Source: an uncultured Gemmatimonadaceae bacterium
GTDB taxonomy: Bacteria; Gemmatimonadota; Gemmatimonadetes; Gemmatimonadales; Gemmatimonadaceae
Length of the DNA stretch: 64,000 bases
Assembly: GCA_963822945.1 (NCBI GenBank)
Contig: CAWGJO010000039.1
Span: 1-64,000, forward strand
Direction: 5' to 3'
The notes under the pieces: model-generated
Databases searched by the model: none
What the model was told of the DNA's origin: nothing
The model's input: only the letters and a program-made list of their open reading frames with translations
Shown here: positions 48,846 through 50,867 of the stretch, one piece after another
Layout: every line of letters starts with the position of its first letter
Position numbering within the stretch: position 1 is the first letter of the stretch
Program-made: the position numbers and the translations under genes

Positions 48846-48887
48846 GTCGGCGGTCCACGGTGGACCGTCGACTGTGCACGCTCGACT
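48846..48887. repeat. Heptamer-periodic tract forming a hairpin between convergent nadE and HNH genes
   Basis: gtcggcg gtccacg gtggacc gtcgact gtgcacg ctcgact; 48846-48872 is near-palindromic. Confidence 0.6.
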
Positions 48888-48903: not shown

Positions 48904-49308
48904 TCACGCCGCTTCCGCATACGCCAGACTCACCGCCCGCCGCGCACAACGCTTGAGCGCCCGATGGACGGCGCGCGCGTAGTGAATGAAGTTCAGGCCC
49001 GCCCAGGGAAAGCGGGCGAAGAACTCACTCGGCAGCAGATCGGCCTTCAGACGATTGCAGCGGCAACAGGCCAGGACGAGGTTGCCGGGATTGTGGGTGC
49101 CACCTTTGGCGAGCGGAAAGACGTGGTCCAGCGTGGCGGTCTCGAAGTCGAGACACGCCCCGCAGTACACGCAGCGGCGGCCGCAGTCGCGCATGGCCGC
49201 GCGCTTGAGCGCACGCTTCTGGTTGGCGGGGTGGGTCCGGCGGGCACGGCGCGGTGCCCGTGGGACGCGAGGGAGGGTGACGTGGTGATAGTGCCGACGG
49301 CCGGACAT
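48904..49308 (-). CDS. Small zinc-binding HNH endonuclease (134 aa) with Arg-rich termini
   Basis: GAGGTG RBS before ATG 49308; CVYCG...TLDHVFP...GG.....NLVLACCRCNRLK. Confidence 0.9.
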   Translation of the reverse strand: MSGRRHYHHVTLPRVPRAPRRARRTHPANQKRALKRAAMRDCGRRCVYCGACLDFETATLDHVFPLAKGGTHNPGNLVLACCRCNRLKADLLPSEFFARFPWAGLNFIHYARAVHRALKRCARRAVSLAYAEAA

Positions 49309-49320
49309 TTCACCTCGCGG

Positions 49321-49368
49321 AAAAAGGAGACACCCCGCGACGGGACAGGAGTCCCATTGCGGGGTGTC
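49321..49368 (-). terminator. Intrinsic terminator or attenuator just upstream of the HNH RBS
   Basis: GACACCCCGCAAUGGGAC-UCCU-GUCCCGUCGCGGGGUGUC-UCCUUUUU; 17 of 18 positions pair. Confidence 0.8.
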
Positions 49369-49515
49369 GCACCGGCTCTCGGTAGCCGGGTTCGGAAGAC
49401 GAAGCACGTGCGCCGCTCGCGCGGGCGCATCGGACAGGCAATTCGTCGCTGTCGGAGCGGTGCGTGCATTCGCCTCCGGTTGGCGAGAGACGGGCGCCGT
49501 GCCCGCCTGGCCCAT
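49321..49515 (-). ncRNA. Putative structured leader or ncRNA upstream of the HNH gene (family unassigned)
   Basis: Five further hairpins (49489-49507, 49470-49486, 49433-49453, 49409-49429, 49372-49389) precede the terminator; an AT-rich promoter-like patch lies at about 49512-49550. Confidence 0.5.
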
Positions 49516-49606
49516 AAATGTGAGGTCGCGCCCGATCGCGCAAGACTTTTCTGCGTCGATCTCGCCACCGGACGGGTCACGGGCCGGTCACGGCGGCGGC
49601 CGGTGC

Positions 49607-49843
49607 TCAGCCGGCGCCTCCTGGCAACCGGCCGTCGGTGATCCGCAGCACGGCGCCGTGCGCATCTACCACGTCGGCTGCGGCGGGCGCGCGCTTCCGG
49701 AGTTCGGCGCTCGATCCGACCGCCACCACGCAATCGTCAGCCAGCGCGACCGCGTCGGCCCACGGACGCCGCGGGTCGCCCGTCTGGACGCGGGCGTTGA
49801 CGATGACGCGGGTGATCTCGGTGCGGTGGGGAGTATCGGGCAT
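49607..49843 (-). CDS. Stand-alone fragment resembling the N-terminal beta-sandwich of YtcJ-like amidohydrolases
   Basis: IVNARVQTGDPRRPWADAVAL....VVAVGS..EL......VVDAHGAVL, then stops before the expected PG..D.H.H motif. Confidence 0.6.
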   Translation of the reverse strand: MPDTPHRTEITRVIVNARVQTGDPRRPWADAVALADDCVVAVGSSAELRKRAPAAADVVDAHGAVLRITDGRLPGGAG

Positions 49844-49919
49844 CGGCGGCGGAACACGCAAAGCGCTTCAATAGGCGCACGTTAGCTTACAGGAATTCCG
49901 AACACCAGCCACCGTCCCC

Positions 49920-50867
49920 ATGCACTCCATCGCGACCAACATCTGGTTCTGGGTAGGGTTCATCGCGTTCGTGCTCGCGATGTTGGCGCTCGACCTGGGC
50001 GTCTTCCATCGCGAAGCACACGAAGTGCGTCCGCGCGAAGCGGCGATGTGGACGCTGGCCTGGGTGTCGTTGGCCATGGTGTTCGCCGGCGTGCTCCACG
50101 TGTTCGAGCCGCGGGGGACGGCCATCACCTTCCTCACCGGCTATCTGCTCGAGGAGTCGCTGAGCGCCGACAACATCTTCGTCATCGCGCTCATCTTCGC
50201 GTACTTCGGGGTGCCCAAGCGGTCGCACCACCGCGTGCTGTTCTACGGCATCCTGGGGGCGTTGGTGCTTCGCGGCGCGTTCATCGGCCTTGGCGCCCTG
50301 CTGCTCGCGCGCTTCCACTGGGTGCTCTACGTGTTCGGCGTGCTCCTGGTGGTCACCGGCACGCGCATGGCGTTCCACGACGAGATGGCCGAGTTCGACG
50401 GCGAGAAGCACCGCGTGGTACGGTTGGTCCGGCGCTTCGTCCCGATGAGCCCGCACTACGACGGCACGCGCTTCTTCACCTGGGACGGGGCGCGCCGGTT
50501 GGCCACGCCGCTCCTGCTGGTGCTGGTGCTCGTCGAGGTCACCGACCTCGCGTTCGCCATCGATTCCATTCCGGCGATCTTCGGCGTGACCCGCGATCCG
50601 TTCCTGGTGTTCACGTCGAACATCTTCGCCGTGCTCGGACTACGCTCGCTGTTCTTCCTGCTGGTGAGCGTGATCGACCGGTTCTACCTGCTGAAGTACG
50701 GGCTCTCGGTGATCCTGACCTTCATCGGGGTCAAGATGCTCGTCGATCACTGGATCCAACTGCCGATCTCGGTGTCGTTGACGGTGATCGTGGCCGTCCT
50801 GGCCGCCGCGGTGGGCGCGTCGCTGCTCTTTCCGAAGCGGGCCCACGCGACCGGGGAGCATCAGTAG
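49920..50867 (+). CDS. TerC/Alx family membrane protein
   Basis: LALDLGVF, YLLE.SLS.DNIFV, RVLFYGILGALVLR, E.TDL.FA.DSIPAI, SNIFA.LGLR. Confidence 0.93.
   Translation: MHSIATNIWFWVGFIAFVLAMLALDLGVFHREAHEVRPREAAMWTLAWVSLAMVFAGVLHVFEPRGTAITFLTGYLLEESLSADNIFVIALIFAYFGVPKRSHHRVLFYGILGALVLRGAFIGLGALLLARFHWVLYVFGVLLVVTGTRMAFHDEMAEFDGEKHRVVRLVRRFVPMSPHYDGTRFFTWDGARRLATPLLLVLVLVEVTDLAFAIDSIPAIFGVTRDPFLVFTSNIFAVLGLRSLFFLLVSVIDRFYLLKYGLSVILTFIGVKMLVDHWIQLPISVSLTVIVAVLAAAVGASLLFPKRAHATGEHQ

Follow-up and report, generated by a model that had tools for sequence, protein, structure and literature searches.

The region immediately upstream of a small HNH nuclease gene in an uncultured Gemmatimonadaceae bacterium is probably a cis-regulatory element built from an upstream open reading frame (uORF) and a terminator, whatever its polarity. 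As to how it acts, we lean towards a translation-coupled transcription attenuator of the pyrBI polarity, tuned by slow decoding of CGA codons, a specific reading to which we give a little less than an even chance. The locus lies in a window (by which we mean the whole stretch of DNA analysed) of 64,000 nucleotides, positions 1 to 64,000 of contig CAWGJO010000039.1. The original prediction, made from the sequence alone, described a structured small RNA that ends in a terminator just ahead of the nuclease gene, and a promoter-like box, hairpins, a U-tailed stem and a 134-aa HNH gene are all present where it had placed them. What had been taken for a small RNA is in all likelihood the control region of the HNH gene itself, a gene of soil Gemmatimonadaceae, and a uORF starting at 49469, absent from that prediction, is the main leader feature. 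Sequence comparison provides the conserved uORF start, the read-through of the uORF into the stem, the in-frame excess of CGA codons, the stem with its U-tail, and the position of a segment complementary to the uORF ribosome site.

The HNH gene and its genomic setting

The HNH gene (48904..49308, minus strand) encodes a predicted stand-alone Zn-binding HNH nuclease of 134 aa with the McrA/Cas9-type fold, an Arg-rich N-terminal arm and a long, conserved C-terminal helix. Its ATG at 49308 follows the Shine-Dalgarno (SD) sequence GAGGTG (49311..49316), close behind the terminator as predicted. The protein scores above the curated Pfam cut-off (HNH, PF01844; HNH_5, PF14279), with the catalytic His/Asn and the Zn cysteines present; all 120 distinct loci retain the motif CVYC..DH..N..CxxCN..K, and the gene has a dN/dS of 0.16 within the genus. 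A fold search with the structure model (pLDDT 80.6) gave the Gme HNH nicking endonuclease (PDB 4h9d) and Cas9 HNH domains as best matches; fold searches otherwise returned generic HNH matches, and the ESM Atlas led to HNH clusters. These proteins, with the HNH domain of IscB, are the best sequence and fold matches of the core, but the core is all that matches: there is no RuvC or other Cas9/IscB part, and the C-terminal helix is family-specific. The IscB model reached 32.7 bits against a cut-off of 175, in the HNH region only, Cas9 models likewise fell far below theirs, and PADLOC gave weak HNH-core matches only (best E 2e-6). The fold shared with other HNH proteins gives no substrate for the nuclease.

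Matches at E ≤ 1e-20 were found in 207 of 300 Gemmatimonadaceae genomes (genomes G022 and G073 are included in these tallies), mostly as a single copy (among the genomes listed, just three had a second match); an alignment search of 162 genomes from 11 other families of the phylum found none. The gene holds a fixed chromosomal position across the family. Among the 120 loci, nadE is convergent downstream in at least 81, a HIT gene lies upstream in at least 77, and a 2-oxoacid dehydrogenase E1 gene is divergent upstream in at least 66, all lower bounds from flanks of 0.5–3 kb. Fixed synteny, the family-only spread, the intact motif and the low dN/dS together argue that this is a vertically inherited orphan nuclease that is probably active.

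In the window, a short HutI-like amidohydrolase fragment (49607–49874, minus strand) and a divergent TerC gene (49920–50867, plus strand) stand in for the usual E1 and HIT neighbours, an arrangement shared by 6 of the 120 loci; no Rfam riboswitch matched ahead of terC in the window. Where HNH and nadE converge, a perfect 7-bp inverted repeat (48851–48867) lies between their stop codons and is likely a shared 3' end hairpin. An Ada-like AraC/O6-methylguanine methyltransferase gene is found, convergent, between HNH and nadE in 23 of the 120 loci; a RidA-family gene comes next on the same strand in 12. The source genome (G000, an 88%-complete assembly) has two more stand-alone HNH genes (C20:259446–259691, minus strand, and C20:351692–351958, plus strand), neither preceded by a leader of the uORF/terminator kind when inspected by eye; the second HNH copies L175 and L176 likewise have no such leader. 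Weak HNH matches of the stand-alone kind occur in nearly all genomes searched in the order.

Leaders compared

Duplicates, the weak matches L028–L030 and two loci with short upstream sequence (L073 and L091) were removed to give the set of 120 loci. Twelve of these without an assigned stem and adjacent SD-led start were set aside, as were L081 and L092 (wrong stem), and the remaining 106 leaders were dereplicated to 50 (<55% alignment score). Codon counts use 40 of the 50, having dropped leaders with no start or a start outside −125 to −240, as well as L077, L112, L122 and L151, whose starts had been misassigned by the script. A set of 39 leaders with starts at −135 to −176 was used for family alignment and folding, C content and the per-leader CGA comparison. 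Loci excluded from the counts were read by eye, and L024 is included in the leader counts. The loci are related, and the counts overstate their independence.

Promoter and 5' end

A −35-like box, TTGCGC (49538..49543, minus strand), recurs across the family: a TTG-anchored pattern fits 41 of 50 leaders, with C, G and C at positions 4 to 6 in 37, 40 and 34 of the 41. It is followed by a −10-like AT-rich patch (49514..49522, minus strand) containing CACATT at 49522–49517, and transcription would start a few nucleotides further downstream, at about 49510. The promoter-like patch of the original prediction is present and its TTGCGC box (49543–49538) recurs, although a sigma-70 scan found no sites at the leader; the tRNA promoters of the same genome read TTGAC..TANNNT, unlike the leader's box. 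In 7 of 85 leaders (L021, L100, L102, L114, L115, L147 and L151), though not in the window, a sigma-54-like box (TGGCAC..TGCA) lies across this promoter.

The leader begins with a 5' hairpin (49489..49507, minus strand) in which 95% of cells are paired and 3 of 8 pairs show two-sided changes among 16 genus sequences; across the family it folds at z < −1.65 in 18 of 39 leaders. It is probably a stabiliser or an RNA polymerase pause element, and 5' hairpins of this kind could pause polymerase.

Folding and conservation of the leader RNA

The predicted folding energy of the 198-nt leader strand is −107.5 kcal/mol (z = −5.37), a value that none of 200 shuffles equalled. Within the genus the fold covaries (12 pairs, 0/500 shuffles; 16 sequences), including a small hairpin before the terminator (49372..49389, minus strand; 86.5% of cells paired, one pair with two-sided changes) that is evident at the genus level only. 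The long central helix is 75% paired in the 16 genus sequences, against 95–97% for the 5' hairpin and the terminator, and the proposed long-range pairing CCGCUC/GAGCGG does not hold up, since two of its six pairs are broken in 10/16 and 15/16 of these sequences.

Across 39 dereplicated family leaders the middle has a median alignment score of 16, against 15 for shuffled sequences, and a fold better than z −1.65 is reached by just 6 of the 39. The covariation is seen within the genus, and a small-RNA leader as a conserved RNA fold was not confirmed across the family. Four things in the leader are conserved family-wide: the promoter box, the uORF ribosome site with its start, a C-rich segment, and the stem. 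No known riboswitch had been recognised in the original prediction, and an Infernal search against Rfam agrees, with nothing at the gathering score and chance hairpin matches only at E ≤ 10. No direct-repeat families were found in 49300–49560, and the leader is single copy in the genome. The 6S model (RF00013) matched neither the leader, whose fold is not a single rod, nor anything else in the 88%-complete genome by Infernal, and ARAGORN found no tmRNA in this assembly. Four RNA runs available as contigs only, apparently two duplicated data sets, gave no cover on the leader and low cover on the HNH and nadE 3' ends. In L119, a REP-like inverted-repeat insertion was seen by eye within the uORF region.

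The uORF and its CGA codons

The uORF (49047..49469, minus strand) starts at 49469 behind the SD sequence GGAGG (49473..49477) and runs for 140 codons to its stop, about 33 of them to the terminator stem. It passes through the stem and then over the HNH start in another frame, and a terminated transcript would hold about 50 uORF codons without a stop. With a search window picked after the data had been seen, 25 of the 50 leaders contain a strict pattern of GGAGG, 2–5 nt and a start codon, whereas an upstream control window gave 2 and shuffles a mean of 0.49 (maximum 2); a looser SD-start pattern gives 40 of 50, against 6 and 5.5, respectively. The starts are ATG in 34, TTG in 4 and GTG in 2, and are swapped between genera. 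In 15 of the 16 genus loci the start is placed exactly at −161, while the length of the 5' UTR ranges from 69 to 76 nt. By eye, L096 and L148 have an apparent CTG start, 8 nt behind GGAGG and in frame with CGA-CAG-CGA.

The uORF frame is kept open up to the stem. Of the 40 leaders, 2 have a stop ahead of the stem in the uORF frame, compared with 12 and 10 in the other two frames; in the remaining 38 the uORF extends at least as far as the stem. Two of the uORFs end within the stem and 6 in the gap that separates it from the HNH start; 3 are fused to HNH, and 27 enter the HNH gene out of frame. Within the genus the uORF has a dN/dS of 0.79 (0.69 for codons 2–23) with variation equal over the codon positions, which points to little constraint on the peptide. 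Such weak constraint fits a sensor, but it would fit an untranslated region as well.

Codons 6–9 of the uORF are CGA-CAG-CGA-CGA (49443..49454, minus strand), a putative slow-decoding sensor. Across the 40 leaders there are 76 CGA triplets in the uORF frame and 21 and 28 in the other frames (75, 20 and 28 in 39 leaders if L024, from genome G022, is left out). CGA makes up 76 of 189 uORF Arg codons (40%), compared with 90 of 993 (9%) in codons 2–21 of 523 genome genes and 7% of Arg codons genome-wide, and two or more CGA codons are found in 25 of 40 uORFs against 12 of 523 control genes. Leader by leader (39), the in-frame count is above that of the best other frame in 27, below it in 5 and tied in 7. 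The maxima are at codons 6 and 8, and because CGA is spread from codon 3 onwards a codon effect fits better than a fixed RNA motif. A genome-wide filter for leaders of the CGA-uORF/terminator type passed 6 of 11263 SD-start sites, and this leader alone had three CGA.

The Arg tRNAs found by ARAGORN in the 88%-complete genome have the anticodons ACG, CCG, TCT and CCT, plus two doubtful GCG; none has the TCG anticodon, which reads CGA. Where no such tRNA is present CGA is decoded by inosine wobble, and this should therefore be how it is read here. A guessed pattern for tRNA-Arg(UCG) matched 0 of 61 genomes but had been given no positive control and carries no weight. In a Salmonella leader-peptide assay, CGA was read slowly according to the accessible part of the report (PMC4046918).

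The putative anti-Shine-Dalgarno segment and terminator

A C/U-rich anti-SD segment (49393..49401, minus strand) forms a consensus helix (columns 83–90/161–169) with the uORF ribosome site. This SD pairing comes from folding prediction. A predicted SD partner no more than 45 nt before the stem is found in 26 of 40 leaders, against 4–9 in shuffles; pairing anywhere in the leader is only in modest excess (30 of 40, against 17–23 shuffled), so only the position stands out. By eye, ribosome sites with G-runs are matched by partners with C-runs. The last 20 nt ahead of the stem have a C content of 0.45–0.47 and a G content of 0.14–0.25.

The intrinsic-terminator-like element (49321..49368, minus strand) consists of a stem at 49368–49329 and a U-tail at 49328–49321. 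The 18-position stem of the original prediction is confirmed, with 18-nt arms that are 89% complementary. Among 46 family sequences, 5 of 8 core stem pairs show two-sided changes (18 at one pair, for example). In 40 of 50 leaders the 10 nt after the stem contain 4 T or more, which is true of 37 of 387 strong hairpins located behind genes of the same genome, a control that includes non-terminators; the other 10 tails have 3 T or fewer. A similar stem with no U-tail lies just after rpsG in G000 (C20:81383–81419), with a convergent gene next, indicating that the sequence of the leader stem is ordinary for this organism.

In constrained folding the stem forms at 0.95–0.96 with a ribosome at codons 1–20 and at 0 once its 5' arm is covered. 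Equilibrium folding predicted no antiterminator. Accessibility of the HNH ribosome site is 0.23–0.27 whatever the ribosome position, with its partners spread, and this constancy does not support a translational switch. No U-rich pause tract or other polymerase pause signal was found in the leader.

Variant layouts in other lineages

All six loci of genus g10 are without the stem/terminator leader and have a short, CGA-free uORF that stops on the HNH start. The Gemmatimonas-like loci have uORFs with few CGA; in L086, L092 and L170–L172 uORF and HNH make up a single fused frame that includes the stem, and in L169 and L129 the uORF ends on the HNH start codon. In a g43-like clade (L064–L066, L076 and L081) no leader is left, and the HIT gene extends as far as HNH. 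The variant-layout HNH genes tested all have intact catalytic and Zn residues, and the intact genes in the g10 and g43-like lineages indicate that the leader RNA is dispensable. In the fused and stop-start lineages, translation of the uORF would appear to feed HNH expression.

A translation-coupled attenuator as the preferred reading

Attenuation at E. coli pyrBI needs no antiterminator, and with none predicted here steric control of that type is the simplest explanation. Classical trp/his attenuators have an antiterminator that competes with the terminator, a leader stop upstream, and control codons that match the downstream pathway; these features are absent from the HNH leader, which has no antiterminator, no stop upstream and a nuclease gene downstream. 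In pyrL, the pyrBI leader, an intrinsic terminator lies within a translated leader ORF and is suppressed by a closely trailing ribosome, as described in the available sections of two papers (PMC4824070, PMC5021804). Both features have counterparts in the HNH leader: the terminator is inside or at the end of the leader ORF in 38 of 40 leaders, translation being read from the sequence, and folding at equilibrium gives no antiterminator and a steric block by the ribosome. The systems differ in that pyrL senses UTP via polymerase pausing and controls a biosynthetic operon, whereas in the HNH leader it is ribosome speed at CGA that seems to vary, an anti-SD segment closes the uORF, stops close to the stem are mostly missing from the uORF, and the gene controlled encodes a nuclease. 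Provisionally, then, we take the HNH leader to work like a pyrBI-type attenuator.

From the features above we infer translation of the uORF, termination at the stem, polarity, signal and nuclease activity as follows. RNA polymerase would make the 5' hairpin and then the uORF ribosome site and start codon, and the first ribosome would have a brief loading window until the SD is captured by the C-rich segment some 75 nt further downstream. A ribosome that loads, moves past the CGA codons quickly and stays close behind the polymerase would cover the 5' arm of the terminator, so that no stem forms and HNH is transcribed. If loading fails or the ribosome lags at CGA, whether from few free ribosomes or from little charged or inosine-modified tRNA-Arg, the stem would form and an RNA of ~190 nt would be released. 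The ribosome site of the released RNA would be buried, and ribosomes would not be trapped on a stop-less message. The default state is probably mostly off. The suggestion in the original prediction of a cis-attenuator that keeps the nuclease off fits this scheme, acting via the uORF and its ribosome and not via a ligand-binding fold.

Several observations count against parts of this reading. According to PMC4824070, a terminator that lies within 100 bp of the start of an ORF acts normally unless the ribosome has been coupled by a pause, and the HNH stem begins about 25–37 codons in, with no pause signal found. CGA is not universal, being absent from codons 2–21 in 5 of 40 uORFs and scarce or missing in the g10 and Gemmatimonas-like lineages, and the first 20 codons of HNH are themselves somewhat CGA-rich (44 in frame). 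Weak tails, with three or fewer T, are found in 10 of 50 leaders. The further proposal that the leader senses CGA decoding as such, the supply of charged, inosine-modified tRNA-Arg(ICG), and licenses the nuclease only when that supply is good, with possible feedback by a nuclease acting on translation-machinery RNA, we consider distinctly unlikely.

Two other uORF-controlled genes are looser analogues than pyrBI. In the accessible text on Salmonella speF (PMC6386406), orf34 has early rare Arg codons and its translation averts premature termination, as proposed for the HNH leader, but it has a conserved peptide and Rho in place of an intrinsic terminator, and rare and common Arg codons behave alike; in the HNH leader the CGA codon is conserved and the peptide is not. 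In E. coli toiL-topAI a uORF likewise gates a potentially harmful protein by translation status, but it does so via a downstream ribosome binding site and Rho, and stalling induces, according to the part of the report available (PMC12121999). A literature search, which took in few subscription journals and no supplements, found no HNH or Gemmatimonad genes with such attenuation, a leader ORF or a type III toxin-antitoxin (TA) system.

Alternative explanations

The S. meliloti duf1127-1 leader provides a precedent for the opposite polarity, the main rival reading. As far as the available text goes, the core of the published mechanism is that, in the absence of a bound ribosome, the uORF ribosome binding site base-pairs to a C-rich segment, and the leader is proposed as a monitor of ribosome availability (PMC12218461). 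Transferred to the HNH gene, translation of the uORF would expose the C-rich segment to Rho, with termination at the stem as a pause, and after failed loading the SD would mask that segment, so that translation stress induces the nuclease. The C-rich, G-poor 20 nt before the stem and the weakness of some U-tails suit this idea, and the genome has a Rho-like motif. The C-rich patch, however, is about 20 nt long compared with 70–90 nt for a typical rut site, and duf1127-1 depends on Rho, carries its C-rich element at codons 3–10 and is turned off by translation (same source, PMC12218461). The C-rich element of the HNH leader sits right against a strong U-tailed stem. Being in the distal part of the uORF, it would be occluded by a ribosome translating that stretch, and the U-tail is kept in 40 of 50 leaders. 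Moreover, translation would promote, not block, HNH output in the fused and stop-start lineages. We regard Rho-mediated control of this polarity as rather unlikely.

The leader may also sense nothing, with the uORF, the buried SD, the rare codons and a leaky terminator forming a fixed dampener on a potentially harmful nuclease. Every part lowers output, layouts vary by lineage and the leader can be lost, as would be expected of a dampener, but a terminator alone would do, and an open, CGA-loaded frame kept up to the stem in dozens of genera exceeds the need. This explanation is unlikely.

It is very unlikely that the ~190-nt terminated RNA acts in trans with the nuclease, either as an antitoxin of the type III TA kind or as an OMEGA guide or scaffold, a guide, scaffold or antitoxin role having been offered in the original prediction. 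OMEGA loci have an IscB-sized protein with RuvC motifs and a bridge helix, a conserved structured RNA and a transposon context. The HNH protein has 134 aa and matches the HNH region only, its Arg-rich sequence and its likeness to Cas9/IscB HNH domains being what recommends the comparison. The original prediction had itself noted no RuvC motifs or transposon context, and it was right: besides the sub-threshold IscB score, the locus has fixed synteny with nadE, HIT and E1, is mostly single copy and is not mobile. The locus is not a new RNA-guided nuclease system. Its order of promoter, RNA, terminator and nuclease gene, the terminator directly before the toxin gene, is that of type III TA loci (PMC3401426, in the sections available), and the strong fold with its covariation in the genus is as a partner RNA would have it. 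It differs from them in having no tandem pseudoknot repeats and another protein fold (PMC3401426, likewise in part), its Pfam matches being to HNH families alone and not to toxins of the ToxN/CptN/TenpN type. With the middle of the RNA unconserved family-wide, no Rfam match, and conserved features that are translation signals, the claim of a partner RNA is not supported, and the loss of the RNA beside intact HNH genes in two lineages argues against its neutralising the protein.

That the uORF product is itself a functional small Arg-rich protein, for example a nuclease inhibitor, with the terminator setting its ratio to the nuclease, is highly improbable. The strong ribosome site, the Arg-rich peptides with a recurring R-(Q/H)-R and the dN/dS of codons 2–23 speak for such a product; however, its stop and length are not conserved, the frames diverge beyond the start, it is the CGA codon and not Arg that is constrained, and a terminated transcript would be stop-less.

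An N-terminal extension of HNH from the ATG at 49515, which the original prediction had named as its own possible refutation, has next to no chance of being real: the frame is open in the window, but it is refuted by frameshifts in close relatives, being out of frame with HNH in 7 of 16 genus loci, with a dN/dS of 0.98 and an ATG that overlaps the −10 region.

Implications

If the translation-coupled attenuator is the right reading, this would be a case of family-wide attenuation in which the conserved sensor is one rare synonymous codon and not a peptide or a ligand-binding fold, and in which a clamp admits only the first ribosome to a stop-less leader. Should the CGA-decoding proposal also be true, the attenuator would read the state of tRNA modification, and not an amino acid or nucleotide pool. 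On the attenuator reading, the leader would also offer a reporter route to transcription-translation coupling in the Gemmatimonadota, and a handle on the role of a conserved orphan HNH nuclease that is, by motif, catalytically intact.
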